Assembly (NCBI GenBank): GCA_028707065.1
Contig: JAQTUZ010000002.1
Coordinates: forward strand, 70,513-134,512
Reading direction: 5' to 3'
DNA length: 64,000 nt
Origin: Patescibacteria group bacterium
Lineage (GTDB): Bacteria; Patescibacteriota; Patescibacteriia; Patescibacteriales; WJLG01
Of the stretch, positions 1-38,527 are shown piece by piece; position 1 is the first letter of the stretch, and each line of letters starts with the position of its first letter. The notes under the pieces were generated by a model. It did no database searches and was not told the origin of the DNA. It worked only from the letters and a program-made list of their open reading frames with translations. Position numbers and translations under genes: made by a program.

Positions 1-670
1 CTAATAGACATTTTCTTTTAGTTTGTTCGCACCCGATTAAAAGCGATCCGCTGCCGGCAAACCCATCAAAGACAAAATCGTTTATTTTGGTGCTGTTGAG
101 GATTAAGCGCCTTAATAATCCGACCGGTTTCATGGTACTGTGCAATTTGCTTTTATTTGGTTTAGGATAGAACAAGACGCTCTTATCCTGGGAGTGGCGG
201 AAGTCATGGGCGCCATACCAGCCATAGGCGATTAATTCATGCTGGGGCAGATAATCCAAGCGGCCAATTACCGCTTGTGATTTAACCCAAATGAGCAACT
301 GGGTGAATTTGTATTTGGCCTGAAGCATTGCCTCTCGCAAGGCGAAAATCATCTTGTCGCTGTTAAAAATATAGACGGCATTTTTTCTGGCCAGATACGG
401 TTTTATGTTTTCCAGCCACTGAATCGTGAAGTCGCGATATTCTTCGTCGCTTTGCGCCTGGTCGTTGGCAATGATTTTTTCACAGCCCAATTTTTGCTTG
501 AACCCTGATTTGCTCTCGACGTAGCCAACTCCATAGGGAACATCGGAAATAATCGCGGTAATTTTATCCTCGCCGATAAGGCGTTTTAATAATTCCTTAT
601 CATTAACATCGCCGCAGGCCAATCGATTATTGCCCAAGCGGAAAATTTCTCCCGTTTTAACTTTTTTCAT
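1..670 (-). CDS. DNA methyltransferase (N6-adenine/N4-cytosine type), 3' end cut by window edge
   Basis: Not in the ORF track because no stop lies in the window. Manual minus-strand translation from ATG at 670 stays open to position 2: MKKVKTGEIFRLGNNRLACGD...ISDVPYGVGY (motif IV, DPPY-like)...FDGFAGSGSLLIGCEQ (motif I FxGxG). It overlaps the upstream gene by 14 nt. Confidence 0.8.
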   Translation of the reverse strand, partial: MKKVKTGEIFRLGNNRLACGDVNDKELLKRLIGEDKITAIISDVPYGVGYVESKSGFKQKLGCEKIIANDQAQSDEEYRDFTIQWLENIKPYLARKNAVYIFNSDKMIFALREAMLQAKYKFTQLLIWVKSQAVIGRLDYLPQHELIAYGWYGAHDFRHSQDKSVLFYPKPNKSKLHSTMKPVGLLRRLILNSTKINDFVFDGFAGSGSLLIGCEQTKRKCLL

Positions 671-1952
671 GGTTGTATTTTGCCTTGTTGAGCTTCTTGG
701 CCCTCAGGCCACTAAGCTTTTCAAAGCGATTAATTATTAATTGGCAAAAAATTTGATCCTTTTCGATTAGGTATGCCCGCCGTTTTAATTGCTCGCAAGC
801 GATCAGCGTCGATCCTGATCCGCCGAACAGATCAAGCACGATGTCATTGATCTTGGTGCATCGTCTGAGGGCTTTTTCATGTAGAGTCGGCGGCTTTGAT
901 GTTGGGTGCTCATAATCCTGCCCGGGCAGACGTTTAACCAGCCAGATATCAAGAAGATCGAGAATATCTTCGATTGTTCGGTTGCCGGTGCCGATTTCTT
1001 TGTTTAGGATTTCATTAAGGTTGTTGATCGGCGCTACGTAGGGCTTGTTTTTAATGCCGTAAACTACTGGCTCATAGCATTTGTTGAAAGCGACTTGCGG
1101 GGTTACATTAAATCCATTTTTCATCCAGAGGCAGGTTCGCTGGTATTTTATGCCGAGTTCGGCATACAGCGCTTGGATCATGCCCACATACTTCTGATCG
1201 CAATACCAGAAAAAATGCAGATCCGGCTTGCTGACCGACAAGGCGGTTTGCATTGCCTGTTTGGTAAACTCTCTGAATTCTGCGTCGGTTTTGTTGTCAT
1301 TGACTTGTCCGCCGTAGTTTTGTTTTCCGCCCAAGCCTTTAGCGTAGTCGAGGGAAATATTATAGGGGCTATCGCAGTAGACCATGCTGGCTCGCTCTCC
1401 GGCCAACAGAATTTTTCCGTTATTCTGATCGGTCGAATCGGCGCAGAGGAGGCGATGGCTGCCTAACTGGAAAAGGTCGCCTGTTTTAATGCTGGTCTCC
1501 TTTATTTTTTCTAATTCCTTTTCTTCTTGAAAATCGTCGTCCTCGATTTCTAAAACGTCATTCCAGATTGCGCCGATTTCTTCGGAATCAAAACCCACGT
1601 CCAGCAAGGTTTCGATTTCAAAGTTTTTCAATAGCTCAAGATCCCATTCTCCTTGCGCCTTGTTCATTAATAAATTCAAATCTTTTTCCTTTTTGGGATT
1701 TAAATTTACGAAAATGACCGGCACTTCTTTGTAATTTAATTTTTGGGCGATTTTCCATCTTTGGTGGCCAGAAATTATCACGTTCTCGCGCCCTTTGAAT
1801 CGGTTGGCGACGATTGGATCCAGAAGCTGGTAAGTTTCAATGCTTCTGGTTAATACTTTTTCCTGGCTGGCCGTAAGGCGTCGAGGATTATATTCGGCCG
1901 CCTTGAGCTGTGCCGGAGGCACCATTATGATCTTAGGATTGATTTTCTTCAT
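657..1952 (-). CDS. ParB-like N-terminal domain fused to DNA methyltransferase
   Basis: 431-aa ORF. The N-terminus has ParB/Srx-type ISGHQRW. CDSPYNI is motif IV and LDLFGGSGSTLIACEQ is motif I (beta-class order). This architecture is common in phages and prophages. Confidence 0.85.
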   Translation of the reverse strand: MKKINPKIIMVPPAQLKAAEYNPRRLTASQEKVLTRSIETYQLLDPIVANRFKGRENVIISGHQRWKIAQKLNYKEVPVIFVNLNPKKEKDLNLLMNKAQGEWDLELLKNFEIETLLDVGFDSEEIGAIWNDVLEIEDDDFQEEKELEKIKETSIKTGDLFQLGSHRLLCADSTDQNNGKILLAGERASMVYCDSPYNISLDYAKGLGGKQNYGGQVNDNKTDAEFREFTKQAMQTALSVSKPDLHFFWYCDQKYVGMIQALYAELGIKYQRTCLWMKNGFNVTPQVAFNKCYEPVVYGIKNKPYVAPINNLNEILNKEIGTGNRTIEDILDLLDIWLVKRLPGQDYEHPTSKPPTLHEKALRRCTKINDIVLDLFGGSGSTLIACEQLKRRAYLIEKDQIFCQLIINRFEKLSGLRAKKLNKAKYNHEKS

Positions 1953-2116
1953 ACGGATTTAGTTTTTAGTTTATTAATAAATCGCGCGGAAATAAAAAAA
2001 CCTACTCCGCACGCGAAATAAAAGAAGTCGACGCTTCGCTTATTTCTTGCGCGGAATAGGCATGGCTCTTTGAGCGCTACACTACTCGCTTTTTACTACG
2101 CAGTATTATTTAATTT

Positions 2117-2530
2117 TTAACTTTCATTTTTTGCCAATCTTCTTAAAATCCTTTTTCCTTTGACGCTATTTTTAAATTCAACAGCATCCTTTCCAAGAAG
2201 GATCGGCACATTATTCGGCACGCTTATTAAAACGCGCCTTCCTTGCTTTCGGCATTCGTTTATCGTCTCTTGCAGAACCGGATCATTCAGGCCCATGTCA
2301 ATATTAAAATTAATTATACCTTCTTTATTTTTTTCTTGCGGCGGAAGAGGGGAGTAGAGTCTTGCTGGTTTTTTCCAAAAAATCAACCTTTTAAAAAATT
2401 TGCCAATCTCATTTGTAGTTCGGGTATTTGTGTGAAGCTGAATATCGGTCATTTGTAAAACAATATCCTCTGGTCCGGGAGCAGACTGAGCTGGCTTAAG
2501 TTCTAATTTTTGGATTATTTTTTCTTCCAT
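2117..2530 (-). CDS. hypothetical protein
   Basis: 137-aa ORF upstream of and co-oriented with the methyltransferases. No motif recognised. Confidence 0.45.
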   Translation of the reverse strand: MEEKIIQKLELKPAQSAPGPEDIVLQMTDIQLHTNTRTTNEIGKFFKRLIFWKKPARLYSPLPPQEKNKEGIINFNIDMGLNDPVLQETINECRKQGRRVLISVPNNVPILLGKDAVEFKNSVKGKRILRRLAKNES

Positions 2531-2646
2531 GTCTTAAGTATAGCACGCCGTACAAATTACGCAAGAGGTACAACAAATATTTGACTTGTTTCGAGCTCTA
2601 TGCTAAGCTTGTGATAGCTAATATAAAAGCACGTAAAATTCAACTT

Positions 2647-3288
2647 ATGAAAAAAATGAACGAAAATCAGCAAAAAATTCTCAAACTTGCTTTAAAAGAG
2701 GATATAAGCAAGTTGACCCCAATGGAAATAGCTAGAAAAACGGGCATTGATCACGTCTTCAAAGTTCAATACCATATGGATCAACTTAGAAAAAAGGGCT
2801 TGCTTTATTTCAATAAAAAAGACAAAAAAAGCGAAGTTGCCAAGAGTGGATCGTTTGTTATTGATAAACTTTTACGCATTCCGATTGTTGGCGCGGCTAA
2901 TTGTGGTCCGGCTACCGAACTGGCTCATGAAAACATAGAAGGATATTTGAGTGTATCCAAAGAATTTTTGCCTAAGGCAGACCAGAATAGCTTGATGGCG
3001 GTCCGAGCAGTTGGCGAATCGTTAAATAAAGCCAAAATTGATGGCGAGAGCGTCGAGAGCGGCGATTATGTTATTGTCGACTGCAATAGAACCCCAGAGC
3101 CCGGTGATTACGTCTTGTCGGTTATTGATGATGCCGCCAATTTTAAAAAGTTCTATAAGACCGGAGACGAGGTTAGGCTTGTATCGGAATCGACCCTAGA
3201 CATTCCGCCCATCGTTTTACACAAAAAAGATTTAGACTCTATCGGCTACGCCGTTAACGGCGTAGCGATAAAGGTATTTAAAAAATAA
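2647..3288 (+). CDS. LexA/CI-like repressor (winged-helix N-terminus plus S24 self-cleaving peptidase domain)
   Basis: ATG at 2647 lies in frame within ORF 2581..3288. Ala-Gly-type cleavage region IVGAANCG, Ser motif VGESL (GDSM-like), Lys region ANFKKF. The N-terminus is HTH-like. Confidence 0.75.
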   Translation: MKKMNENQQKILKLALKEDISKLTPMEIARKTGIDHVFKVQYHMDQLRKKGLLYFNKKDKKSEVAKSGSFVIDKLLRIPIVGAANCGPATELAHENIEGYLSVSKEFLPKADQNSLMAVRAVGESLNKAKIDGESVESGDYVIVDCNRTPEPGDYVLSVIDDAANFKKFYKTGDEVRLVSESTLDIPPIVLHKKDLDSIGYAVNGVAIKVFKK

Positions 3289-3511: not shown

Positions 3512-4501
3512 ATGATAAACACTTTATTAGAGAATTTTCTTATTAAGAAAATTAATCCGGATCCGGAAATCATTAATCAAGCCTCTGAAAGCCAGGAAAG
3601 ACTTAGAGAAATTTTGGCAAATAAGTTGGAAGAAGACAATAGCTTGCCTTCCGTTCTTGAGGGCGAGGATTTTCTCTACGGATCTGCCATCAGGGGAACA
3701 AAGCCAGCACCGTTTGATGATGTTGATTTAATGCTTGTTTTAGATGGATCAACCTTGGTTGCCAAAGAAGGTGGTCAGGAAATGGGTCCAGCATATGGAA
3801 GCGGGAAAACATTTAATCCGCTGACTTTGCCGCAATATAAAGATGAGTTCGGAAATATATCTTCTCAAAAAATTCTAAACCGCATCCGCGAAGTTTTAAG
3901 TGAAACTTATTCTCGTTCCGAAATCAGAAAAGATGGGCAAGCAATTAATGTTTGGTTGGATGCATATGGTTTTGGAATTGATGTTGTCCCTGCTTTTAAA
4001 ATCGCACATACTAGAGCCGGTACCCATTATTTTATTCCCGAAGGAACAAATTCGAATATGTGGCAATCTACGAATCCGCTTTCTGATATTGAAGCATTTA
4101 AAAAAGAAGATGCAAGATTGGGCGGTGTTTTATCTTCAAGTTGTCGACTTATGAGAAAATGGAATGAGTTGAGTAACGCTGACAGGCTTTCAGGATTCCA
4201 TGTGGATGCGCTTGTTTATCGTTCGCTCTTTGGGAAAAATATTACGACACTTGAAAATGCCTTGCGAGAGTGTTTTAATTTGTTTGATCAGCATCTTGTC
4301 TTAACTTGTCCGCAATTTTCTGGGTTTGCCCCACATATTGATTACAAACTTTCGGCTGAGAATCGAGCACAAAGCATCAAGATGGCACAGGAAGCAAAGA
4401 ATTGTTTTTCGGCGCCTGGGTCTGGTCTACTCTTTTCCCTGCCAGCAAGCACTAATATGCGACTTTGGAATAAAATATTCAACGGGGAATTACTTAAGTA
4501 A
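3512..4501 (+). CDS. SMODS / CD-NTase-like nucleotidyltransferase (CBASS-like cyclase candidate)
   Basis: Pol-beta NTase motifs: YGSAIRGT (GS), DDVDLMLVLD (DxD) and a third acidic residue in GIDVVPAF. The downstream IPEG...W..TNP pattern is typical of SMODS. Confidence 0.7.
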   Translation: MINTLLENFLIKKINPDPEIINQASESQERLREILANKLEEDNSLPSVLEGEDFLYGSAIRGTKPAPFDDVDLMLVLDGSTLVAKEGGQEMGPAYGSGKTFNPLTLPQYKDEFGNISSQKILNRIREVLSETYSRSEIRKDGQAINVWLDAYGFGIDVVPAFKIAHTRAGTHYFIPEGTNSNMWQSTNPLSDIEAFKKEDARLGGVLSSSCRLMRKWNELSNADRLSGFHVDALVYRSLFGKNITTLENALRECFNLFDQHLVLTCPQFSGFAPHIDYKLSAENRAQSIKMAQEAKNCFSAPGSGLLFSLPASTNMRLWNKIFNGELLK

Positions 4502-4505
4502 AAGT

Positions 4506-5390
4506 ATGAATAATATTATTGCCAGACAAAATCAACCCGATCAGATTAATAGATTGGCCGCCCAAAGGTATCTATATTCTAAAGCGAAAAATTTTTTTCT
4601 TGCTCGGCTGTTTTTATCCCTCGTGTTTGCAATCATCGCTCCAATTTTAATGTTAGAATTTAAAAATACCCAATATTATATCGCCATATCCGCAGTTTTT
4701 TATTTGTTTGTTGACTTTTTCTTTTTAAGAAGAGTTGAGAATTCTGATAGAAAAAATGCGGCAAAAATTCAAGAAAGTTTTGATTTGGAATTATTTGAAC
4801 TGCCGTGGAACGATATAGTTGCTGGGAATAAAATTGAAGAAGAGAAAGTACTTTCGTCCTCGAAAAAGTATAAGAAAAAAGTGAAAAATAATTTGGCAAA
4901 TTTGTATGATTGGTATTCTAAAGAAATAGGAGATATTGATCTTCTGCCCGCGGTTGCCATTTGCCAGCGGACAAACGTGTATTGGGACGTGTCTTTGCGA
5001 GAGAAGCTTTTTTGGTCAATTATGGCCATAATTTTATTGTTAAGCTTCGTATTATTTTTTTGGGGCAAAAATTCAATAGTGTTTTTATTTTCAGTTCTTC
5101 CTTTTTACGAAGTTATCATTGATTATGCGGCATCGCAGTATTCTTCGGTAGGCAGAATTAAGGAACTTAAAAATAAAATTGAAGAATTACTGGAAAAGCT
5201 ACCTGAATTTAAAAATATCAACAGTGGCATAAAAGGCAGTCTAAGAGCAATTCAGGATCAGCTTTTTAGACACAGGGAGTCGTGTTCGTTTGTTCCAGAT
5301 TGGTTTTATAAAATTTTTAGAGACAGACAGGAGGAGGAGATGAATTATTGTGCGAAACATTATGTTGATAAATTCCTAAGTAAAGTGTAG
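4506..5390 (+). CDS. four-TM effector, SMODS-associated S-4TM/SLATT-like
   Basis: ATG at 4506 is in frame within ORF 4326..5390, 4 nt after the NTase stop. Two pairs of hydrophobic helices (LFLSLVFAIIAPILML, YYIAISAVFYLFVDFFFL, LFWSIMAIILLLSFVLFFW, IVFLFSVLPFYEVII) precede a charged C-terminal tail. Confidence 0.6.
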   Translation: MNNIIARQNQPDQINRLAAQRYLYSKAKNFFLARLFLSLVFAIIAPILMLEFKNTQYYIAISAVFYLFVDFFFLRRVENSDRKNAAKIQESFDLELFELPWNDIVAGNKIEEEKVLSSSKKYKKKVKNNLANLYDWYSKEIGDIDLLPAVAICQRTNVYWDVSLREKLFWSIMAIILLLSFVLFFWGKNSIVFLFSVLPFYEVIIDYAASQYSSVGRIKELKNKIEELLEKLPEFKNINSGIKGSLRAIQDQLFRHRESCSFVPDWFYKIFRDRQEEEMNYCAKHYVDKFLSKV

Positions 5391-5583
5391 CAGGTAATGA
5401 GTTGTGCTATGTTTTGATATTTTTGTCAAATGGTGCATAAAAGCAATCCCTTTTTATAGTGTCCCATTTGTCCCATTTTGTTTTTAGACCCTTGACCCAA
5501 GTGCCTCATTTTTGCCCCTGGACGATGTCGCATAAAACCCTTATGATGATTGTATAACTGGGGTACTTAACCCAAGTGTCCCG

Positions 5584-5625
5584 CTAACTAAAATAACCTG
5601 ACCTGCGTCAGGTTATTTTAGTTAG
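5584..5625 (+). terminator. perfect 19-bp AT-rich hairpin after the CBASS-like operon
   Basis: ctaactaaaataacctgac / ctgc / gtcaggttattttagttag. Confidence 0.6.
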
Positions 5626-5762
5626 AATGGAAAAGGATAGGATTCGAAAGGCGGAGCGATGTTGGCCGAGCTTTTTGGCGAGGCCAACCGCGAGCCGGGG
5701 TCGCGACCGAACGAGCGGAAGCGAGTGAGAGTTGTGACCGAATCCCATCCTCTCCGCTCAAA
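5598..5762. repeat. 165-nt direct repeat, copy 1 (hairpin half plus GC-rich element with tRNA-3'-like ends)
   Basis: Identical to 5966-6130 except for one mismatch (offset 368 nt). The GC-rich core is bounded by GGATAGGATTCG ... CGAATCCCATCC. Confidence 0.9.
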
Positions 5763-5799
5763 TATAAAATCACGGCTCGTCGCCGTGATTTTATATTTG
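5759..5799. terminator. perfect 17-bp hairpin between GC-rich elements
   Basis: caaatataaaatcacgg / ctcgtcg / ccgtgattttatatttg. Confidence 0.45.
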
Positions 5800-5965
5800 A
5801 GAAGAAAGGGAAGGGGATTCGAACTGGTTGCGAGCGAGCTATGAGTCGCGAGGGAACGAGCGACGAATAAGCGAGCGACGCCAGACGCGACCCGCGGGAG
5901 CGTTTGGCGGCAACCCTGGACAAGAGAGCGAGCCGCTTTCCGGCGGCGAGCGAACGCGTTTCTTT

Positions 5966-6130
5966 CTGACCTGCGTCAGGTTATTTTAGTTAGAATGGAA
6001 AAGGATAGGATTCGAAAGGCGGAGCGATGTTGGCCGAGCTTTTTGGCGAGGCCAACCGCGAGCCGGGGTCGCGACCGAACGAGCGGAAGCGAGTGAGAGT
6101 TGTGACCGAATCCCATCCTCTCCGTTCAAA
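5966..6130. repeat. 165-nt direct repeat, copy 2
   Basis: See copy 1. Only the last 5 bp of the left hairpin arm are kept. Confidence 0.9.
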
Positions 6131-10608: not shown

Positions 10609-10695
10609 GGAGGTGTGCTAGAGTGGTCGAATAGGACAGTCTTGAAAACTGTTAGGCCAGCAATGGCCTCAGAGGTTCGAATCCTCTCGCCTCCG
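10609..10695 (+). tRNA. tRNA-Ser (anticodon UGA), type II
   Basis: Hand-folded cloverleaf: acceptor GGAGGTG/CGCCTCC, anticodon arm ACAGT-CTTGAAA-ACTGT, long variable arm, T arm AGAGG-TTCGAAT-CCTCT, discriminator G73. Confidence 0.9.
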
Positions 10696-10743
10696 CATAA
10701 AATTCAAAATGACCTTTTGTCTTTTAAATTTTATATGAAACAA

Positions 10744-10956
10744 GAGAGATTCGAGCGGGGAAGGTTTGGAAACCGGGAGGTTTCCACTGTTTCCGGGGGA
10801 TGGTATTGGAAGGGGTGGAAACCCCTTCCAAAAGCGAGTCGCCCCGGGCGGCGAGCGCGTTCGAATAGCGAAGCGCCTCTCGCCTCCGCATCAGTTCGCC
10901 CGGGTATTTACCCGGGCGCCCCGTCGGATGACGGGGCGAATCTCGCCCTCTCCGCA
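10744..10956. other. GC-rich multi-hairpin element with two tRNA-3'-end-like motifs
   Basis: Perfect hairpins GGAAACC/GGTTTCC, GGAAGGGG/CCCCTTCC, CGCCCGGG/CCCGGGCG and GCCCCGTC/GACGGGGC. The ends GAGATTCG...CGAATCTC can pair. It contains cctctcgcctccgca and ctcgccctctccgca. Confidence 0.6.
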
Positions 10957-22131: not shown

Positions 22132-23001
22132 ATGCCCGAACTGCCGGAAGTTGAGACGATTAGACACGACCTTGCCCGGAAAATAGTTGGCGCGAAAATC
22201 AGCGCGGTTGAGGTCAGAGATAAAAAATTAGGCGAAGCTAAAAACTTCGCCCGTGTTTTAGTCGGCAATAAGATCATCGCCGCCGAGCGGATCGGCAAGC
22301 TTTTGATAATGAGATTGAATGATAAAAATTTTTTGCTGATTCATTTGAAGATGACCGGCCAGCTGGTTTACGAAGATCAGGAAGAATTGCTGGCAGGAGG
22401 CCATGCGTTTAAGGAAGGGGATCTATTAGAGGAAATCGGGGGAAAGTTGCCCAATAAATACACCCGCTTCATTTTGAATTTTGCCGGCGGCAAAAAATTA
22501 TTTTTTAATGATACGCGCCGTTTTGGTTATGTTAAGATCGTTGACAAAAAAGAATTGGCTGAAATTAAAACCAGATTCGGCATCGAGCCGTTGCAAGCTA
22601 ATTTTACTTTGGCGAATTTAAAGAAAATTTTGGCGGACAAGAAGATCAATATCAAAGCCGCGCTGATGGACCAAAAAAATATCGCCGGGATCGGCAATAT
22701 TTACGCCTCGGAAATTTTATATGTCGCCCGCGTCAAGCCGACTCGTCCGGCCGGAAGTCTGAAAGCGGATGAGATCGGAAAAATTTTTCAAGCTTCAAAA
22801 GCGGTTTTAAAGAACGCTATCAAACATCGCGGCACGACTTTCAGCGATTATGTCGATACCGGCGGCAAAAAAGGAAATTTTTCCAAACTTTTAAAAGTTT
22901 ATGAGCGGGCAGGGGAGAAATGCCAGGTTTGCGGCGGAACGATTAAAAATACTAAAATAGCCGGTCGGAGCACTTATTTTTGCCCGAAATGCCAACATTA
23001 G
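22132..23001 (+). CDS. mutM: formamidopyrimidine-DNA glycosylase
   Basis: Starts MPELPEVE (catalytic Pro2). C-terminal zinc finger CQVCG...CPKCQ. Confidence 0.9.
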   Translation: MPELPEVETIRHDLARKIVGAKISAVEVRDKKLGEAKNFARVLVGNKIIAAERIGKLLIMRLNDKNFLLIHLKMTGQLVYEDQEELLAGGHAFKEGDLLEEIGGKLPNKYTRFILNFAGGKKLFFNDTRRFGYVKIVDKKELAEIKTRFGIEPLQANFTLANLKKILADKKINIKAALMDQKNIAGIGNIYASEILYVARVKPTRPAGSLKADEIGKIFQASKAVLKNAIKHRGTTFSDYVDTGGKKGNFSKLLKVYERAGEKCQVCGGTIKNTKIAGRSTYFCPKCQH

Positions 23002-23120
23002 TTAATTAGTTGATTGGTTAATTAGTTTCGGCTGAACCAAGTTCGCCTCTAAAGAATACGCAGTCTAGAATGATGAACTTTGTTTTACTAAAACTAATTA
23101 ACTAATCAACCAATCAACTG
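22999..23120. repeat. word-repeat inverted repeat (AATTAGTT word family)
   Basis: Left arm tagttaattagttgattggttaattagttt, right arm aaaactaattaactaatcaaccaatcaactg, about 60-nt spacer. Confidence 0.7.
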
Positions 23121-23192
23121 CCTTGACTTTTCCTTTAAAATTCAATAAGATACTAACATATCTAATTATTTAAACAGCATAATACTAACGAT

Positions 23193-23348
23193 ATGTCTCA
23201 AGACAATTTGATCAAGTTCGAATGCACGGAATGCAAAAAAATCACTCATTTTTCCCACAAAAATAAGAAAATTTTGAAGGAAAGGCTGGAATTGAATAAA
23301 TATTGCCAGAATTGCAAAAAGCATACTCTTCACAAGGAAACAAAATAG
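23193..23348 (+). CDS. rpmG: 50S ribosomal protein L33
   Basis: Manual 51-aa ORF, below the track cutoff: [51 protein letters not shown]. It has the CxxC...CxxC L33 pattern. A TTGACT-N17-TAAGAT promoter lies upstream. Confidence 0.85.
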
Positions 23349-23427
23349 TTAATTAGTTGATTGGTTAATTAGTTTTTTAGATACGACGTTTCGTCTGTTT
23401 TTTGTATTTGGTTAATTACCGTTCGTT

Positions 23428-26393: not shown

Positions 26394-26464
26394 GCGGGGT
26401 TCGTATAGTGGTAGTACAGGGGTCTCCAAAACCTCTAGCGTGGGTCCGATTCCTACACCCCGTG
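26394..26464 (+). tRNA. tRNA-Trp (anticodon CCA), canonical type I
   Basis: Hand fold: acceptor GCGGGGT/ACCCCGT (G1-U72 wobble), anticodon arm GGGGT-CTCCAAA-ACCTC, short variable loop, T arm GTGGG-TCCGATT-CCTAC, discriminator G73. Confidence 0.85.
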
Positions 26465-26578
26465 CGTATATAAAATCATGTAAAGCGACCCGAAGGCCGA
26501 TTATTTTCGGGTTCCAGACCCAGACAGGTAAAAGTTTTTTGGATAGAAAATTTTAATTTTAAGATTAGATTTTTTTAT

Positions 26579-27808
26579 ATGGCCTATAAGGACGTGTCTG
26601 ACGACGCAATAAATTCAATAGCAAAATTTATTAATCAAAAGAGTAACAAGAATTACTCTATTCCTGTCGTTGGAGACGAGAACAATCCAGAGGTTCCACA
26701 TATTTTTGAAATAATTCCGTTTAATGAAATCGATAAAACTTCAAGTAAATTTTATGCAATAGACGGAAGTTATAATTCTCAAGAATTCTATAACGGTATG
26801 TGTATTGCGGTGTACGCCGCTGGGTATGTTTGCTATAAAGATGGAAAGCAGGTTTGTTTGAATGGGTTAGACGATCCAGTGATATTGGGAAAATCCTACT
26901 TTCCTGAAAGAGTTTTGGTTATAAATGATGAGGATAAGGAACTGATATATGATGAGTTGTTTTCTCTGGATCCGGTCAAGAAGTTAATTGCTTTTTTTGG
27001 GGATCCTGTTAGGGATATTTTTGCGTATGACAAAAAGGCTGTTTGTACCACAACATCAGCATTACTATCTTTTTGCCAGAGCGTTCTTGAATTGGCACTC
27101 ATATATGAAATTGCAAATCTTAAAACCACAGAAGTTGGCGACTTTATTTTACGAGATGGCACTTTAAGACCGATAGATGTTAAGCAAAAGTATTCTGTCA
27201 TGTTGGGAGAATATTTAAAGAAAAAAGGAATTATTATTGTTGCCATAACAAAAAATTCTGGAATTAAGATGGAGCTCTCATATACTTTCAAACAAATTGA
27301 TACATATCTTCAAGATAAATTAAAGCCGACATACTCATTTAAAAACCAAGATTCTAAATGTCAAAAACTTTGTTGTTGGTTTGAAGTTCCCACGACAGTT
27401 CTTTCCAGCGCATATGGTCAAATGTATATAAAAAAGGAGCTTACGGGCGGAAGAGGTTTTGGTTTGTTTTTTGTAGCTAGACTGGATTACGTTGAAAAAT
27501 TACAGAATTACGATTGGCTCGTTGTCGACGTTAATATCTTTGATGCAATTCCTGGAATCAAAACATTTGATATTAAACGAGACATTTTATTTTTAGAGAG
27601 TCTTTTTAAAGAGCTTACTCGTCTTACCCAAGAACATTATATTCTTGGGTATCCTTATCCTTTAGTAGAGGTGCACAATTTTATCACTCTTAAAAAGACA
27701 TTTAAAGATGAAATAATAAAGAGGGTAAAGTTTGCGTTATACGGCAATCAGCAAATGGATAATGTTGATATTGAAAATATATTTTTAGATATACACGATC
27801 GTTTTTAA
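26579..27808 (+). CDS. NurA-like nuclease
   Basis: FYAIDGSYN, ILRDGTLRP and VAITKNSGIK match the conserved DGS / DG(T/S)L / K.S strands of NurA. It sits immediately upstream of a HerA-like ATPase. Confidence 0.65.
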   Translation: MAYKDVSDDAINSIAKFINQKSNKNYSIPVVGDENNPEVPHIFEIIPFNEIDKTSSKFYAIDGSYNSQEFYNGMCIAVYAAGYVCYKDGKQVCLNGLDDPVILGKSYFPERVLVINDEDKELIYDELFSLDPVKKLIAFFGDPVRDIFAYDKKAVCTTTSALLSFCQSVLELALIYEIANLKTTEVGDFILRDGTLRPIDVKQKYSVMLGEYLKKKGIIIVAITKNSGIKMELSYTFKQIDTYLQDKLKPTYSFKNQDSKCQKLCCWFEVPTTVLSSAYGQMYIKKELTGGRGFGLFFVARLDYVEKLQNYDWLVVDVNIFDAIPGIKTFDIKRDILFLESLFKELTRLTQEHYILGYPYPLVEVHNFITLKKTFKDEIIKRVKFALYGNQQMDNVDIENIFLDIHDRF

Positions 27809-27825
27809 TAATTTAATATAAAAAT

Positions 27826-29487
27826 ATGATAAGTAAGGAAAATTTCGGAGTTTTGTATGGGCAAAAAACCACAGAAGATGCTCTGCTTATTTACTCATCT
27901 TATGCTGATTCTAAAGCAAGTCCTCAAACTGGTGATTTTATTGTTTTGGCGCCGAAGGATGAGAGCGGGATAAAGTTTCTCTCAAGAGTTGATGCAGAAA
28001 TTTACGACGAGGATCCGATTTTTAAATCTCAGGATAAGACGCTTATCGCGGTTCACTATGCCCGAATTGCAGAGCGTGAGCTTTCCGAAAGAGATAAGCA
28101 AAAAATTTTTAGCTATACGTATAAAGTTAAAATTTTGGGTACGTTCACTAACAATGGAGGCGGTATAGATTTTACAACCGCCGTAAGAAAGCTCCCCACG
28201 GTTTCGTATCATGCCCGACATCTTTTACCGGAAGAAATTAAATATATTTTAAATAAGGATAATCAACAGGAAGGTAGCCAACCATCAGCTTTAGGATATC
28301 TTTGTATCGGTGATTCCGAACAAAAGGAAAAGGGTGAAATATTTTTCGATATCAATAAACTTTGTAAAAAAAGAACAATGGTCTTTGCTCAATCTGGTTT
28401 CGGTAAGACAAACTTGGTTAAAACCTTGATTTATCATGCTATAGGTGATACTGGCTACGGGAAGCTTGTCTTCGATTTAAACGGAGAATATGCTTTAAAA
28501 AGTCAAAAGACAAATGGTCTCGGCGATATTAATGAGCAGAAAATAAAAGACAATCTAGTTGTGTATACTGATAAGTCAATTCCAGTAGAGTACAATGGTC
28601 GTTTTATTGCTGGTGGAAAAGTCGCCTTAAACATGTATAAGAATTTATCCGTAGGTGATGTGCTAAATTTTACTACTGGTTTTTCTGATGTAATGAAATC
28701 TTTTCTTATTTATTTGAACGATGGTGCTGGAAATTTTATGGAAAAGATTGAAGATTATGCCAGTACTCCACAAAATTTATATAAAGATTTCCCTGATTTT
28801 TGGGGTCAAGAGAAGTCGGATAAAAAAACAGGAGAATTTAAAGATGATGCTAAAGCACGTCCTACAATAATGGGCATTAGAAAAAGAATTGGTTTTCTTT
28901 TGGATGAGAAGGGTGGCTTGCATTCTAATTCGTCAACTTTAGTGGAGGATGTTTGTAAATATTTACGAGAAGGAAAAACTGTTGTATTGGATCTTTCAAT
29001 GAAAGATGACACCGAATCAAGTATTATTTCTACAATTATTGTGCGTAAAATATTCGAGATTAATAAAGCTAGTTTTACAACGGAAGAGGATATCGGCGAG
29101 CCAATTCCTTGCGTTATATTTGTTGAAGAGGCGCAAAATGTTTTATCGGAAGAATTCGTGAAATCAAATGCTAATCCTTTTGTGCGTATTGCAAAAGAAG
29201 GAAGAAAATTTGGAATCGGATTAGTCGGCATTACTCAGAGGCCATCGGCAATTTCTGAAGAAATAAGAACTCAGGCTGATAATTTTTTTGCATTTCACAT
29301 GGGGAATAGTGATGATATACGTGCGCTAGTCAAATCTAATTCTAATTATGATGGTGTCATTGCTAAATTTATTCAAAGCGAAACAATCCCCGGTAATTTG
29401 TACATGGTTTCTTCTACACAGGCGTTTGTTCTGCCCATCCGAGTATATGAATTTGAGAAAATGATAAAAACAAAACTATACAAATAG
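27826..29487 (+). CDS. HerA/DUF87-type (FtsK-HerA superfamily) ATPase
   Basis: Walker A AQSGFGKTN, Walker B CVIFVEEAQN, EGRKFGIGLVGITQRPSAIS. Confidence 0.8.
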   Translation: MISKENFGVLYGQKTTEDALLIYSSYADSKASPQTGDFIVLAPKDESGIKFLSRVDAEIYDEDPIFKSQDKTLIAVHYARIAERELSERDKQKIFSYTYKVKILGTFTNNGGGIDFTTAVRKLPTVSYHARHLLPEEIKYILNKDNQQEGSQPSALGYLCIGDSEQKEKGEIFFDINKLCKKRTMVFAQSGFGKTNLVKTLIYHAIGDTGYGKLVFDLNGEYALKSQKTNGLGDINEQKIKDNLVVYTDKSIPVEYNGRFIAGGKVALNMYKNLSVGDVLNFTTGFSDVMKSFLIYLNDGAGNFMEKIEDYASTPQNLYKDFPDFWGQEKSDKKTGEFKDDAKARPTIMGIRKRIGFLLDEKGGLHSNSSTLVEDVCKYLREGKTVVLDLSMKDDTESSIISTIIVRKIFEINKASFTTEEDIGEPIPCVIFVEEAQNVLSEEFVKSNANPFVRIAKEGRKFGIGLVGITQRPSAISEEIRTQADNFFAFHMGNSDDIRALVKSNSNYDGVIAKFIQSETIPGNLYMVSSTQAFVLPIRVYEFEKMIKTKLYK

Positions 29488-29492
29488 ATAAA

Positions 29493-30704
29493 ATGTTACA
29501 ACTTGATGTAAAAAAGAAAATAAATTTAGATACTCTTTTTGAAGACTTAGCCCAAAAAGACAATCTTGTTCTTGAGGAAAAAGTTAAACTCTTGATTTTG
29601 AGGGATCTTTTACGTTTAAATTGGAAAATAGATTTTGATAAAAACAAGATTGTTATTGCCCCTCCTGAGAATTATGATAAGGAGACTGTTCGTCTTGCCA
29701 TGTCTCACAAACGTAAAGAGTCAATTGGTGATAATGCCGAATGGATAAGAAACAATATTGAATTTGCTAGAAATAATCTTGCGGATGGGAAAGATGTTTT
29801 AAGGTCAAAGATAAAACCAATAATTGAGGTATGTGAATCTCCTAGACAACACGATTTATTTAGACTGTATCGGTATTATTGGTCATCTGCTCATAGTGAA
29901 TATGTTGGCAGAAGGATAAAATTAATTATAAGAGACGGTGGTTTGCCCAATAAGCCAGTTATAGGAATAGCTGCTTTAGGTAGTCCAATTATTCATATTC
30001 CTGATCGTGATAATTGGATAGGTTGGGATAAAAATTTAAGAACAAAAAATCTTATTTATGCAATGGATGCATATGTTATAGGTGCGCTGCCTCCTTATAA
30101 TTATTTATTAGGCGGCAAACTCGTTTCTTATGTTTTAGCGTCCAACGAGGTTAGAAAGATATATAAAGATAAGTATAAAAATAAAATTACTTTAATTGAC
30201 AAAAAGAAAGCGAGTGATTTGGTATGTATTTTTACTACCAGCTTGTATGGTAAGAGTGCTCAGTATAATCGGGTAAAATATAAAAGTAAATTACTCTATA
30301 TGCCGATAGGGGAGACGAGGGGTTTTGGAACTCTACATTTATCTAGCGAAACTTTAGATGCAATGTTGGAATTATTGTTTTCAAAAGGAATTTTTGTAAC
30401 AAATAAATTTGGTGATGGTCCAAGTTGGAGCATGAGAGTTATTAGGACGGTGGGGGACATGCTTAATTTCGATTCTGATTTTCTTCTTAGGCATTCTTTT
30501 AAGAGAGGAATTTATGTTGTTCGGCTCGCGAGTAATTTTCGTAATTTTTTAAATGGTAAAGACAAAAAACCAAAATATTATAACTATTCGCTTAAAAATT
30601 TAGTTTCTTTTTGGAAAAAACGTTGGTTTAAAAATAGAAAGCAGAATATTGATGTTATTCAAAAGGTTGAAGCTTTTAATAAATCCGATTTTAATATTCT
30701 TTAA
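29493..30704 (+). CDS. DUF4338 (Druantia DruA)-like protein
   Basis: LYRYYWSSAHSEYVGRRIKLIIR...IGIAALGSPIIHIPDRDNWIGW...NLIYAMDAYVIGALPPYN..LGGKLVSYVLA matches, from memory, the YHYLG...RD.WIGW...N..R.L.LP core. It needs HMM confirmation. Confidence 0.55.
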   Translation: MLQLDVKKKINLDTLFEDLAQKDNLVLEEKVKLLILRDLLRLNWKIDFDKNKIVIAPPENYDKETVRLAMSHKRKESIGDNAEWIRNNIEFARNNLADGKDVLRSKIKPIIEVCESPRQHDLFRLYRYYWSSAHSEYVGRRIKLIIRDGGLPNKPVIGIAALGSPIIHIPDRDNWIGWDKNLRTKNLIYAMDAYVIGALPPYNYLLGGKLVSYVLASNEVRKIYKDKYKNKITLIDKKKASDLVCIFTTSLYGKSAQYNRVKYKSKLLYMPIGETRGFGTLHLSSETLDAMLELLFSKGIFVTNKFGDGPSWSMRVIRTVGDMLNFDSDFLLRHSFKRGIYVVRLASNFRNFLNGKDKKPKYYNYSLKNLVSFWKKRWFKNRKQNIDVIQKVEAFNKSDFNIL

Positions 30705-30748
30705 AACTGTAGGTTAAATGACAAGATAATCAAGGACAAGCTAAATAT

Positions 30749-31657
30749 ATGGATATATCACAGGCAAAGGGTTATCTCTTTGAGTATGTAGTCCAAAATT
30801 TATTAAAAAAATCTGGTTACGTGAAAGTGAGGATGGCAAATATAAGAGGCAGGGGTGGCGATCATCAAATAGACGCCTATGGCTTATTATCAATTCCAAC
30901 GCCTTTTATTTATCCAATAAGATTGATATGTGAAGCTAAAAATTACGGAGATAAAATTGGATTAGGAAAAATCAGGGATTTTGTTGGAGTAATGAAGGAT
31001 ATTTCGGAAAAATATACTACTCGAAAAAATGGCAAATATGAAAGATTTTCTGACTCCGGTTGCTATTTTTCAACAAAGGGTTTCACGATGGACGCTCAAA
31101 AATATGCATGGGCTCAAAATATTTTTTTGGTCTCTCATAATGGTATTGATAGATCTAATGAGATAGTAAAAGTTATTGATGAATTTTTATCTAGCAATCA
31201 GTTTGATGGTTTGAACAAGGGAGGGTTGATAGAAAGGTTTAAAGTATTTTTTGAAAGAAGATTTGACGATTTAGCAATTTCTTTCACGGTCGGTATTGTA
31301 AATGGTAAATATCCAACAGTAATTGTTGGCAATAAGGGGTTGGTCGATAAAATAAAGCAATTTTTGCCGTCTGATTCCGATTCTTTTGGGGCGACAAAAA
31401 CATCGCGAGAGTGGAATGAAACTGATACATATTTTAATGTTTTTATAAATGAATTAGGGGAGGAAATAAAGGTTTCAGTCCCTAATTTCATAGCTAAACA
31501 TATTGTAAATAAGATAGATAGGTCAAGGCCTGGTAATAAGATATTTTATATAGACGTGCCAGTGCTATCTAAAATAAGGCGTTTTGTTACTATTGATGTT
31601 TCATTGGGTGAATTTGAAACTGCGGATTATTTGGATAAATTGAGAAGGGATTCATAG
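30749..31657 (+). CDS. Mrr-like PD-(D/E)xK restriction endonuclease domain protein with unknown C-terminal half
   Basis: GYLFEYVVQNLLKKSGY, GGDHQIDAYG, LICEAKNYGDKIGLGKIRDFVG, GCYFSTKGFTMDAQKYA. Confidence 0.7.
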   Translation: MDISQAKGYLFEYVVQNLLKKSGYVKVRMANIRGRGGDHQIDAYGLLSIPTPFIYPIRLICEAKNYGDKIGLGKIRDFVGVMKDISEKYTTRKNGKYERFSDSGCYFSTKGFTMDAQKYAWAQNIFLVSHNGIDRSNEIVKVIDEFLSSNQFDGLNKGGLIERFKVFFERRFDDLAISFTVGIVNGKYPTVIVGNKGLVDKIKQFLPSDSDSFGATKTSREWNETDTYFNVFINELGEEIKVSVPNFIAKHIVNKIDRSRPGNKIFYIDVPVLSKIRRFVTIDVSLGEFETADYLDKLRRDS

Positions 31658-31776
31658 TGGCCCAGGGCCATATAGTGTCCCATTTGTCCCATTTAGTCTG
31701 CCCCATATGCCGTATAAAATATCATTGAATAATGCCGAAACTACTTGTATAATGTAATATAGACCCGTACGTGGTG

Positions 31777-31820
31777 CTGAAAATAAAAATGCTGGCTTGC
31801 GCCAGTATTTTTATTTTCAG
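31777..31820 (+). terminator. 20-bp AT-rich hairpin after the four-gene cassette
   Basis: ctgaaaataaaaatgctggc / ttgc / gccagtatttttattttcag (one mismatch). Confidence 0.65.
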
Positions 31821-31887
31821 TATCGAGGAGAATGGAATCGGACTGGCCGTGAGCGAACGCGGAATTCCCTCTATCCCCGTGAATTAG
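31821..31887. other. short GC-rich element with a tRNA-Trp-3'-end-like terminus
   Basis: gaggagaatggaatcgg...cggaattccctctatccccgtg. The end resembles tRNA-Trp ccgattcctacaccccgtg. Confidence 0.4.
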
Positions 31888-32035: not shown

Positions 32036-33085
32036 TCAAGTTCCGATCATTGCCAGAAGTTTTTCATAAGGCCGTCGAATTTGCTGCGGTAGGCCCATTT
32101 TTTTGTAAACCGGTTTCATTGAAGCCACCAGACCTAAAGCCCGGGGCCTTAACTCCGGTTTGGATATTGCCAAATGCAATAAGGCTCTGGCCAGTCTCCG
32201 CTTTTTCTTCGGACAGGTAATGCCGCCCTGGGTAATGAAACTGGTCAATCTCAGGCCGGTAAGCATAACTTGGCCGTGCTTCTTGTGCTGATAGGAAGTT
32301 TTTTGGGGATTGACCCGAAAACCCGATTGCTCCACGACCGTCACCAATTCCTTCCTTATTCCTTCAGGGATCGGCAGGGCCGAAGAAACCGCGATATTGT
32401 CGACATAGCAGGAAATCTTAAAATCTTCAGATTTGCCGAGTCGCGAAAGAAAAGTGGTCAGCCAGCTTCCATAAAGGGCGAGGGCGAAAAGCAGCGGAGC
32501 GGTTGGAGTCCCTTGAGGAACGATTCCGTCAGTCGTGGTCAGCTGTAAAATTAACTTGACCAAGCCGCGAAAGTCAGCCTCAAATTCAGACCAGTCGCTC
32601 CCCGCCAAAATCATTTTTCCCACCGAAGTGTTGTTCAAAAAGATATCTGACGTGTCCATCGCGTACGATGTAAATGCCGTCTCCAGCCAAAACGCCCGGT
32701 CGATAATCCGGCGCAGGAGATGTTCCCGCAAAGCCTTTAGATCTACGGACGGAAAAGCATTCTGCAGATCAAGCTGGTAAAACCAATAAGATGCGCTATG
32801 CTTTCGGGCGTGATCAATGTAGGAGCCGCTTCCTTTTCTTAAGCCGAAAATAAAATTATTATAATGCCGCGCCAGAGGGAAACAAAGACGGCTTAAGCAC
32901 CGCTGTCTCAATATTCTTTGCAAGAGATGAAGCGGCGAGGCGGGAAGATAAACTTTTCTCGGAGTATTGTTTTTTCTCGGCAGCTCTTTGATCGTGTAAT
33001 TTCCCACGCAAGCCAGAGCCTCTTCGATTAACGATCGGTCGGTTTGAATGATTTCGGATAAAAAAACGATCGGATCAATATTCAT
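32036..33085 (-). CDS. retron-type reverse transcriptase
   Basis: RT motifs PRKVYLPASPLHLLQRIL, FGLRKGSGSYIDHARKH (NAxxH-like), YQLDLQNAFPSV, VPQGTPTAPLLF, YVDNIAVSS (YxDD variant), GFRVNPQKT, VMLTGLRLT (VTG-like). AGGAGG RBS. Confidence 0.8.
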   Translation of the reverse strand: MNIDPIVFLSEIIQTDRSLIEEALACVGNYTIKELPRKNNTPRKVYLPASPLHLLQRILRQRCLSRLCFPLARHYNNFIFGLRKGSGSYIDHARKHSASYWFYQLDLQNAFPSVDLKALREHLLRRIIDRAFWLETAFTSYAMDTSDIFLNNTSVGKMILAGSDWSEFEADFRGLVKLILQLTTTDGIVPQGTPTAPLLFALALYGSWLTTFLSRLGKSEDFKISCYVDNIAVSSALPIPEGIRKELVTVVEQSGFRVNPQKTSYQHKKHGQVMLTGLRLTSFITQGGITCPKKKRRLARALLHLAISKPELRPRALGLVASMKPVYKKMGLPQQIRRPYEKLLAMIGT

Positions 33086-33120
33086 GTTGTCCTCCTCTAT
33101 ATTATTTTATTGTAAAGATC

Positions 33121-33310
33121 AAAAAAAGGGGGCAGCAGAAGGAGTTTTCCCCTTCTGCCGCAGCTTCCATGCTGAAGAAGTTGTCCTTGAAACTACCAGC
33201 TGCCAGATACTGACAGCCGCCGCCAGGTATGCCAGCAGAGAGGTCCGCCAGCTGCATATACTATGAATAGTACATGATACCTATTCGCAGTATTCAAGCT
33301 ACGTGCCCCA
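33121..33310 (-). ncRNA. candidate retron msr-msd-like non-coding RNA
   Basis: It lies between a strong minus-strand promoter and the RT start. It is GC-rich and holds several 6-10-bp stems. The boundaries are approximate. Confidence 0.3.
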
Positions 33311-33314
33311 CTCG

Positions 33315-33343
33315 ATATTATGGCAAAAAAATCTTTTTGTAAA
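33315..33343 (-). promoter_or_regulatory. sigma70-type promoter upstream of the RT leader
   Basis: The minus strand reads TTTACA-N17-TAATAT. Confidence 0.5.
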
Positions 33344-33447
33344 GAGTCGCTTCTCTTTGGTCTTGCCGCAGTTTTGCCTTGGATTGCGGCAAAATGCGAT
33401 TGTCGGCCGTCGCAGTCCGCGCTGATCCTGCGACGGAACCAAGCCAA

Positions 33448-33480
33448 CAAAAAAACATCCGCCCGAGCGGATGTTTTTTT
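33448..33480. terminator. bidirectional terminator
   Basis: aaaaaaa catccgc ccga gcggatg ttttttt. Confidence 0.7.
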
Positions 33481-33490
33481 GAATGGATAT

Positions 33491-35767: not shown

Positions 35768-35795
35768 GGCGGGCTGATCGCGAAAGAGACTTGAT

Positions 35796-35869
35796 ATTTG
35801 AAATTAGAAATTGGAAATTAGGCGTAAAAAATATATATTCCAAATTTCAAATTTCAAATTTCTAATTTC
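35796..35869. repeat. word-repeat inverted repeat (GAAATT word family)
   Basis: atttgaaattagaaattggaaattagg ... ccaaatttcaaatttcaaatttctaatttc. Confidence 0.7.
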
Positions 35870-35874
35870 TCTAT

Positions 35875-38410: not shown

Positions 38411-38527
38411 ATGATGCGAATACTACGAATTATTCGCGAATACCGCAAATTATTTATCGAATTATTTAATAATAATTCGATAGACCTGTTCGTAGTATTC
38501 GCGTAAAATTTGTTGTATTCGCATCAT
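38411..38527. repeat. word-repeat inverted repeat (CGAATA word family)
   Basis: atgatgcgaatactacgaattattcgcgaataccgcaaatt ... ctgttcgtagtattcgcgtaaaatttgttgtattcgcatcat. Confidence 0.7.

Follow-up and report, generated by a model that had tools for sequence, protein, structure and literature searches.

A probable island boundary module, linked in related loci to large serine recombinases, follows two defence cassettes in a Patescibacteria genome

The boundary sequence of two defence cassettes

The stretch analysed here (hereafter the window) comprises 64,000 nucleotides (nt) of a Patescibacteria group bacterium (assembly GCA_028707065.1, contig JAQTUZ010000002.1, positions 70,513 to 134,512) and carries two defence operons on the plus strand. 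The first encodes a type I CBASS (cyclic-oligonucleotide-based antiphage signalling system), and the second contains NurA-like, HerA, DruA/DUF4338 and Mrr_cat genes. Just 3' of each lies an identical 23-mer, ATAGTGTCCCATTTGTCCCATTT, which occurs on the plus strand at 5456-5478 and 31672-31694. An earlier note on this DNA, made from the sequence alone, had placed the two copies at these positions, 66 nt past the stop codon of the four-transmembrane (4TM) CBASS effector (open reading frame (ORF) 4326-5390) and 15 nt past that of the Mrr_cat gene (ORF 30749-31657), and both positions and distances are confirmed. No further match to the 23-mer with up to 3 mismatches was found in the window, where shuffled sequences lead one to expect 0. 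The 9-mer that it contains twice, GTCCCATTT, occurs four times in the window, always inside the two 23-mers (0.68 occurrences expected), and the 11-mer searched for in testing the head as an operator is present at chance level (17 copies against 19 expected), with no excess near the S24 repressor gene or elsewhere. The 23-mer is thus not a generic repeat within the window.

When the two copies are compared directly by BLAST, about 27 nt around the 23-mer can be aligned and no more. A profile built with nhmmer from 51 related modules nevertheless matches both sites, at 5450-5594 (E = 3e-24) and at 31671-31781 (E = 1.6e-10), and they are therefore diverged members of one family. The 23-mer appears to be the best-conserved part, or head, of a predicted boundary module of about 140 nt. 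The earlier proposal of a shared downstream module consequently stands as far as the profile reaches, and fails for the hairpin and GC-rich element that had been included in it as homologous parts. The hairpins themselves, with their YTGC loops, are real: both fold as 19-25-bp stems between A and T runs, a terminator scan flags 5599-5615 (plus strand) and 31805-31792 (minus strand), and they are ordinary intrinsic terminators in which a GC-containing stem precedes a T run. Hairpin sequences differ between loci, and no homologues of the window hairpins or GC-rich elements were found in the approximately 190 loci compared; these features therefore lie outside the conserved module, and the GC-rich elements were rejected as part of it.

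The module family, its junctions and its neighbours

An exact 18-mer scan of one genome per species returned at least 120 loci, where by our estimate about 17 would be expected for a random 18-mer; the same scan of IMG/VR gave 70 loci and a 24-mer scan of metagenomes gave 71. About 100 distinct module copies (class A) share five elements termed U1, head, D1, D2 and D3, and come from Patescibacteria-type metagenome-assembled genomes (MAGs), metagenome contigs and two IMG/VR viral contigs (L159 and L162; numbers with L designate loci). Hosts include Saccharibacteria, Komeilibacteria, Moranbacteria, Pacebacteria, Peribacteria and Parcubacteria-type MAGs, along with some MAGs labelled otherwise. 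The order is collinear throughout: U1, an AT-rich spacer, two 9-mers, D1, D2, D3 and usually a terminator. U1 is an inverted 9-mer, AAATGGGACAC; the spacer closes in TATAGT or TATACT; D1 is CCCGACCGACTCCCGTTATTT or a subfamily variant (a GACC-type block); D2 resembles AAACCCTTATAA; and D3 has the look of a T-arm plus acceptor 3' strand, often with an encoded GCCA. Several modules may share a contig or genome (three in L037, two in L260, L194 and L208 on one contig, two in the window), and contigs often end at a module (L043, L254, L240, L241). A search of the literature found no description of the motif, and the module matched no GenBank phage.

The 18-mer loci (L001-L190) also include a second class, in which 9-mers, GTCCCATNN, are repeated in long tandem runs, some of them arranged as two opposed, inverted arrays (GTCCC... 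followed by ...GGGAC). Class B, with L012, L024, L030, L102, L127, L130 and L167 among its examples, comes from high-GC phyla (Acidobacteria, Planctomycetes, Verrucomicrobia and Chloroflexi are represented) and from several contigs of phages. These arrays were set aside from the module analysis as a different phenomenon.

Pairwise extension from the 18-mer across 177 copies reveals sharp recombination junctions. L250 and L053 are 100% identical to L257 through D3 (...GGGAGCAAGT) and unrelated to it beyond, where L257 continues into a large serine recombinase gene on the opposite strand. The pair thus represents a presence/absence polymorphism whose junction adjoins a recombinase gene, and L244 has a junction of the same type. 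In L222 and L245 the 600 nt that lead to the 18-mer are identical, and the two sequences part no more than 3 nt beyond it; the viral contig L162 has flanks identical to those of L197 and L248, with the D3 segments swapped. Near-identical modules (90-97%) also stand in unrelated flanks, similarity being lost about 10 nt before and 93-112 nt after the 18-mer. Bodies without heads exist, as do heads with different bodies.

Islands of 1.5-10 kb are flanked by direct repeats of D3 or of a tRNA trailer (L220, L207, L206, L238). In L220, about 60 nt of the tRNA-Trp trailer recur at 93% identity right after D3, 7.9 kb downstream, and the intervening cargo consists of HamA and a helicase (Hachiman-like), a recombinase fragment and unknown genes; its module belongs to the same subfamily as the second window module, and both are linked to tRNA-Trp. 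L207 contains a 97-nt direct repeat spanning 9.9 kb, and in L206 the end of tRNA-Lys and its trailer are repeated 1.5 kb away. Two modules in L238, with 100% identical bodies (92 nt) and different heads (GTCCC and GTCTC), bracket a recombinase fragment. Smaller units are also seen: D3 plus trailer is repeated at intervals of 1.2-1.5 kb along L260, forming an array, and in L008 a single GNAT gene sits between two D3 copies. An intact tRNA at one end with a partial copy or repeat at the other, the usual mark of a tRNA island, is found in L220, L206 and L207; for the second window cassette the repeat is weak. The earlier note had asked whether an inverted copy stands at the opposite end of the cargo; none does, and that end is instead a tRNA 3' end.

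Two further observations concern tRNA genes and their ends. At 600-650 of L220, a short way before the intact tRNA-Trp, there is a tRNA-Trp-like pseudogene that is interrupted by a GC hairpin, CCCCGCCTTTCGCGAAAGGCGGGG. A D1-like block (GACCGAC... or GACCCnnn...) is found about 15-20 nt past genuine tRNA 3' ends in L037, L192, L229 and L206, and likewise past D3 copies in L195, L233, L203, L194, L227, L260 and L088, which suggests a second recurrent site beside the junction.

A phmmer search with one recombinase found 18 matches (17 independent loci), and in all 18 the gene lies on the strand opposite to the module. The linked proteins carry Resolvase, Recombinase and Zn_ribbon_recom domains, as in large serine recombinases, and the GenBank phage proteins closest to them, at 25-28% identity, carry the annotation of serine integrases from temperate phages. 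The search for an integrase associated with the motif elsewhere thus identified large serine recombinases in fixed orientation to the module, and in L257, L244, L088, L100 and L159 the gene abuts the junction directly. In L100 tRNA-Lys abuts the 3' end of the serine recombinase gene, and the viral contig L159 has one recombinase 8.7 kb upstream of its module and a second immediately after it. A recombinase clade (L229, L254, L159, L035, L088) has in addition a conserved stretch of about 60 nt, TTACCAACAGTTTACCTACTTCAAAGGTCTGGACTACCCTTGTGGGTTGCGTC, upstream of the start codon; its reverse complement contains ACCCACAAGGGT, which is also present in D1 of the tRNA-Trp-linked subfamily and in the tRNA-Trp trailer of L220.

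The families that recur among 300 proteins encoded no more than 3-4.5 kb from a module are these recombinases, N6_N4 methylases with ParB_N, Bro-N, S24 repressors, OLD-type ATPase-TOPRIM proteins, SMODS/AGS_C and PRiA4_ORF3. Phage_integrase is not among the 25 most recurrent Pfam families of either list of these neighbours, and a tyrosine integrase or an integron was rejected because neither recurs there. The methylase pair of the window has homologues at 50-64% identity in 11 loci, including L159, and in each of the 11 they lie 1.6-8.9 kb upstream of the module on the opposite strand. Homologues of the S24 repressor are upstream of the module on the same strand, and terminase or TerS-like homologues occur in L236, L082, L226, L159 and L047. 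The gene order of the window (S24, SMODS, S_4TM, module) has a counterpart in L221 (S24, SMODS plus AGS_C, SLATT_4, HU-like, PRiA4_ORF3, module), where a different CBASS occupies the same slot. As to whether the motif flanks variable cargo, a conserved backbone thus accompanies different cargo in one slot, and breakpoints between populations fall at the module.

The head is laid out as an inverted 9-mer (U1), an AT-rich spacer that holds TATAGT, and two direct 9-mers. U1 co-varies with the head variants (GGGAC with GTCCC; GAGAC with GTCTC in L238; GTGAC with GTCAC in L118), which fits either a sequence-specific binding protein or a hairpin. Most likely the head acts as a protein-binding site of the element, with a directionality or accessory factor, the TerS-like helix-turn-helix (HTH) protein or a repressor as candidate binders; a promoter element is a further candidate. 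The earlier suggestion that the 9-mers are recombinase binding sites finds no support; the clearest crossover appears to lie at the end of D3, about 105-125 nt away. An operator for the S24 repressor was rejected given the chance-level 11-mer count and the lack of extra copies near that gene, and a conserved minus-strand peptide in the head region was rejected as no conserved frame could be seen by eye.

The two cassettes of the window

The features of the window are collected in Table 1. Cassette 1 follows a phage-like backbone whose left part runs off the window, as would its recombinase end if one exists. L263, from the same sample and the same genome, extends left of window position 1 and contains the complete methylase, a 142-aa TerS-like HTH protein with weak matches to terminase small subunits, and a terminase large subunit (phrog_38, E = 1.5e-44); the cassette 1 element is therefore prophage- or satellite-like. 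The second cargo is foreign DNA of low GC content: GC is 30-37% across cassette 2 compared with 42-50% in its flanks, falls to 33-37% over the CBASS effector, and recovers at each module. Immediately 3' of the tRNA-Trp at the left edge of cassette 2, a headless partial module body matches the profile weakly (nhmmer E = 0.0045, profile positions 70-131; pairwise p of about 0.03) and is a candidate for the left junction. The likeness of module 2 to other modules ends about 7-8 nt upstream of the first GTCCC; its subfamily also comprises L052, L198, L256 and the tRNA-Trp-linked L220.

Table 1. Coordinates of the cassettes, module parts and adjoining features in the window.
Feature	Position	Strand	Remarks
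Phage-like backbone of cassette 1 island	2-3288	mixed	
Methylase	2-670	-	cassette 1 backbone
ParB-methylase	657-1952	-	cassette 1 backbone
Unknown ORF	2117-2530	-	cassette 1 backbone
S24/CI-like repressor	2581-3288	+	cassette 1 backbone
Cargo 1, type I CBASS	3512-5390	+	SMODS cyclase 3512-4501; S_4TM effector ORF 4326-5390
Module 1 upstream arm	5403-5455	+	-10-like TGnTATGTT (5404-5413), U1, spacer ccctttttat; blocks conserved in related modules
Module 1 U1	5423-5438	+	TTGTCAAATGGTGCAT, degenerate inverted copy of the 9-mer
Module 1 head	5456-5478	+	23-mer: ATAGT plus two GTCCCATTT units
Module 1 body	5479-5584	+	D1, D2 and D3; aligns with L036, L038, L221, L238
Module 1 D1	5486-5508	+	agacccttGACCCAAGTGCCTCA
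Module 1 D2	5532-5548	+	ataaaacccttatgatg
Module 1 D3	5558-5584	+	ctGGGGTACTTAACCCAAGTGTCCCGC, mimic of T-arm plus acceptor 3' end
Hairpin 1	5584-5625	+	AT-rich, GC-rich top, CUGC loop; bidirectional intrinsic terminator
GC-rich element A	5626-5762	+	closes with GGATAGGATTCGAA...CGAATCCCATCCTCTCCGCT
Hairpin between GC-rich elements A and B	5749-5809	+	
GC-rich element B	5800-5965	+	
Copy of GC-rich element A	5994-6130	+	99% identical
tRNA-Trp(CCA)	26394-26465	+	72 nt, left edge of cassette 2
Headless partial module body	26467-26528	+	directly 3' of tRNA-Trp; D1-like GACCCGAAGGCCGATTATTT, then D3-like GGGTTCCAGACCCAGACAGG
Cargo 2	26579-31657	+	NurA-like, HerA, DruA/DUF4338 and Mrr_cat genes
Module 2 head	31672-31694	+	23-mer; without U1 on its left
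Module 2 body	31695-31777	+	nhmmer E = 1.6e-10; BLAST to L052 75% over 110 nt
Module 2 D1	31695-31715	+	
Module 2 D2/promoter-like stretch	31725-31753	+	
Module 2 D3	31757-31777	+	atatAGACCCGTACGTGGTGC
Hairpin 2	31777-31820	+	AT-rich, UUGC loop; bidirectional terminator
Short GC-rich element right of module 2	31825-31881	+	ends ...TTCCCTCTATCCCCGTG, resembling the tRNA-Trp 3' end TTCCTACACCCCGTG

The GC-rich elements right of module 1 belong to a 368-nt tandem duplication, in which 5598-5762 is repeated at 5966-6130 with 99% identity and the closing stems resemble a T-arm plus acceptor. We read the elements at 5626-6130 as scars similar to tRNA 3' fragments; no Rfam match was obtained for the duplication at 5598-6130. 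Repetition of the tRNA-Trp 3' end in the GC-rich element beside module 2 was rejected, the resemblance not being significant (p of about 0.16). A comparable arrangement follows tRNA-Ser(tga) at 10609-10696: two GC-rich elements at 10697-10955 each close in a copy of the tRNA-Ser 3' end (CCTCTCGCCTCCGCA, exact at 15/15, and CTCGCCCTCTCCGCA), and the first opens with the T-stem/T-loop-like GAGAGATTCGAG. Their appearance is that of tRNA 3' fragments in which a GC-rich insert divides the T-loop.

Several other features of the window lie outside the modules. Immediately right of cassette 2, with host-like GC content, are a retron-type reverse transcriptase gene and an upstream 159-aa ORF (32036-33970, minus strand); the best PADLOC models for the reverse transcriptase are RT_VI, X and III-A. 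A second tRNA with the anticodon CCA (Trp), at 52888-52973, is 86 nt long, has a long variable arm (class II shape) and lies in the usual tuf/secE neighbourhood. In many intergenic regions, short AT-rich repeats of regular period are arranged as inverted arrays (TAGTTAAT-type, GAAATTn, AGAAGTA and GTATTCGC units), at 22994-23383, 35786-35870, 38411-38537, 42983-43070, 44100-44276, 49612-49661, 56573-56657, 56858-56917 and 62244-62406; these would form very long hairpins and may be bidirectional terminators made of 7-8-nt units.

Readings of the module and known systems

Taken together, the comparisons lead us to propose, with moderate confidence, that the module closes the right end of phage-like, tRNA-adjacent integrative islands linked to serine integrases, and that it marks a variable slot for defence cargo. 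In module orientation, a full element would comprise a large serine recombinase gene (reverse), a terminase and methylase backbone (reverse), a CI/LexA-like repressor gene, variable cargo, and finally U1, head, D1, D2 and D3. It would integrate immediately past the 3' end of a tRNA gene or past D3 of a resident element. As a mimic of the T-arm and acceptor 3' end, D3 may constitute one half-site of the recombinase, and would resemble a tRNA end because both partners have to be recognised by one recombinase. With a D3 of its own at the end of each element, the landing site would be re-created and islands could stack in tandem. A cargo slot just inside the module would explain why the CBASS and NurA/HerA/DruA/Mrr operons stop 15-66 nt before it. 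The window islands would be recombinase-less members of the family, their recombinase having been lost or never having lain within the 64 kb, with cassette 2 placed between tRNA-Trp and its module and cassette 1 inside a prophage-like element. The earlier idea of an integrating element is thereby upheld in that both cassettes end in the same module family, which forms the right end of integrated islands in related loci; on the other side, the ORFs of the window include no recombinase, integrase or transposase.

That absence is one of several points that weigh against this proposal. All loci were selected by an exact match to the motif, so that conservation of the motif itself cannot be measured from them. 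For cassette 2, the resemblance of module 2 to the end or trailer of tRNA-Trp, which would make up the direct repeat, is marginal at the values given above. Two types of junction, right after the 18-mer and at the end of D3, are not fully reconciled by the model, and tRNAs lie downstream of some modules as well (L036, L038, L221). Many loci are short, so that most modules are seen without a recombinase or tRNA. The identical 18-mer precedes bodies with different D1 and D3, and the head is therefore not tied to one recombinase clade. Finally, serine integrases act on sites of only about 40-50 bp that have a 2-bp crossover and lack accessory arms, and a conserved arm of about 100 nt with repeats of 60-97 nt is therefore unexpected.

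One alternative would make the module the P arm of a tyrosine-integrase attP of the lambda or tycheposon type, with the 9-mers as arm-type sites for integrase or excisionase, D3 as the tRNA identity block and the serine recombinases as bystanders. The classical site of a tyrosine integrase has, next to a tRNA 3' identity block, a direct-repeat-bearing arm of about 100 nt; the module matches that layout, and the 60-97-nt direct repeats flank islands. We nonetheless regard this as the least probable of the explanations considered, given that Resolvase, Recombinase and Zn_ribbon_recom, and not Phage_integrase, are among the most recurrent neighbours and that a serine recombinase abuts the junction in the five loci named above. 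Scarcely more credible is a non-autonomous dispersed repeat of the MITE (miniature inverted-repeat transposable element) or REP (repetitive extragenic palindrome) type, spreading by itself into intergenic regions with no role in integration. It would account for a sharply bounded unit of about 130-140 nt that keeps 90-97% identity in unrelated flanks, for several copies per contig or genome, and for contigs that break at the module. Head and D3 are, however, unrelated and do not form terminal inverted repeats; no target-site duplications were seen, although no systematic search for them was made; orientation is fixed relative to the recombinase (18 of 18 loci) and to the methylases (11 of 11), so that context is non-random; D3 and its trailer duplicate a neighbouring tRNA end; and headless bodies and exchanged bodies occur.

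Two functional roles deserve more weight, though both appear improbable. The module could specify a small RNA or cis-regulatory unit, in which a promoter (TATAGT ahead of the first 9-mer, or the TATAAT-like D2) starts a short transcript. This RNA, tRNA-like at its 3' end, would terminate at the hairpin and act on the operon or as a tRNA decoy; we think this quite unlikely. A -10-like box (TATAGT/TATACT) is conserved before the head, promoter-like pairs occur at 31725-31753 (TTGAAT-17-TATAAT) and 5519-5547 (TGGACG-17-TATGAT), most copies have a terminator past D3, 69 of 90 modules point the same way as the ORF upstream of them, an encoded GCCA end is frequent in D3, and one helix with a single compensatory pair was seen in the WIN1 subfamily. 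Set against this, neither gathering nor permissive thresholds yield a match to any Rfam family, and ARAGORN finds no tRNA in any module, for which reasons a tRNA or tRNA-like gene was rejected. Minimum free energy (MFE) folds differ between copies, and a consensus RNA structure was rejected on that account. The acceptor-like strand of D3 varies while its D1 partner is constant, without compensatory changes, and a cloverleaf of D1 tail and D3 acceptor therefore fails. There is no -35 box at the standard distance from TATAGT; TTGTCA lies 24-26 nt upstream, a spacing too long for a sigma-70 promoter, and the pair was rejected as such. An RNA gene would also leave the recombination junctions and the recombinase linkage unexplained, and the earlier note's small-RNA or cis-regulatory alternative is thus without support. 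Very unlikely, in our judgement, is a packaging site of the pac or cosB type, read by the TerS-like HTH protein and only incidentally beside an attachment site. The lambda cosB layout is R3-I1-R2-R1, which the head, with its bendable AT spacer, recalls; the cassette 1 backbone supplies the 142-aa TerS-like protein and the terminase large subunit, with homologues in 5 loci; the pairing of each head variant with its own U1 would be in keeping with specificity groups of terminases; and an HU-like gene lies near the L221 module. Yet terminase genes are found in a minority of loci, with none in cassette 2 or in the L220, L206 and L260 islands, and the module has no GenBank phage match. Packaging sites usually adjoin or lie inside terS, whereas the head is 3-8 kb away and on the other strand.

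Returning to the integrative-island model, one extension of it would make the module a portable landing pad. In this extension, D3 re-creates the serine recombinase target, integron-like tandem cassette arrays arise without an integron, and the head is a specificity tag whose variants (GTCCC, GTCTC, GTCAC, GTCGC) are read by an element-encoded protein that chooses which elements are excised, packaged or silenced together. We consider this combination of claims speculative and on the whole unlikely. If it were true, tiny-genome bacteria and their phages could build tandem arrays of defence and other cassettes without an integron, and a 9-mer head that is a specificity tag for excision, packaging or repression would add a new layer of control over islands. 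For practical use, the 23-mer, or better the module profile, is a simple marker by which accessory and defence islands can be found and delimited in the genomes of Patescibacteria-type organisms and in their phages, and the junctions furnish candidate natural attP/attB sites for diverse serine integrases. The mobile elements of Patescibacteria-type organisms are poorly charted, and serine integrases linked to tRNA 3' ends and self-renewing tRNA-mimic landing sites may be one route by which streamlined genomes gather and swap defence systems.

Among known systems, the tycheposons of Prochlorococcus integrate at tRNA genes, leave partial tRNA copies at their borders, stack in tandem, include integrase-less degenerate remnants, carry defence and adaptive cargo, and encode a large serine recombinase in 27 of 937 cases (bioRxiv 10.1101/2020.12.28.424599). 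The islands described here resemble them in defence cargo, in the tRNA adjacency and partial tRNA copies seen in related loci, and probably in tandem stacking and integrase-less remnants. They differ in that the linked recombinase is of the large serine type, with no recurrent tyrosine integrase, which is the usual tycheposon case; in the end module of about 140 nt with its head of inverted and direct 9-mer repeats, which is absent from the description in that source; and in their Patescibacteria-type hosts and, for some elements, a terminase and methylase backbone.

In SCCmec-type arrays (staphylococcal cassette chromosome, SCC), Ccr large serine recombinases insert cassettes at the 3' end of rlmH, the target is re-created, cassettes build up in tandem and recombinase-less cassettes persist. 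Shared features are the linked large serine recombinase and recombinase-less cassettes with variable cargo and, on the proposed model, the 3' end of a conserved gene as target, its re-creation and tandem build-up; in place of rlmH the target here would be a tRNA 3' end or its D3 mimic, the repeats are longer, and a 9-mer arm and a phage-like backbone are present. With the serine-integrase sites of phages such as phiC31, Bxb1 and A118, the module-linked enzymes share domain architecture and 25-28% identity with phage serine integrases, as well as the position of the integrase gene beside the junction, and the putative element half-site (D3) resembles the putative host half-site (a tRNA 3' end). 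The sites of phiC31, Bxb1 and A118 have no equivalent of the approximately 100 nt (head, D1, D2) conserved before the junction or of flanking repeats up to 60-97 nt. P2-like prophages and P4-like satellites have a fixed hotspot slot for defence genes near one end, and the islands likewise present one slot with varying cargo (CBASS variants, Hachiman, NurA/HerA/DruA/Mrr, OLD-type genes), on a different backbone, with a different recombinase family and host group and with a different bordering DNA module. Like integron attC sites, the module is a recombination-associated element of the order of 60-140 nt located 3' of each cargo gene, and single-gene units between repeats are seen in L008 and L260. 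Unlike integrons, no IntI, attI or Pc was seen and no integrase lies beside the arrays; nor is the module an imperfect palindrome with R''/R' core sites as in attC, since it folds inconsistently and its repeats are mimics of tRNA 3' ends. Integrative islands adjacent to tRNA genes are a known kind of element, of which the module-bearing form described here appears to be a new variant.

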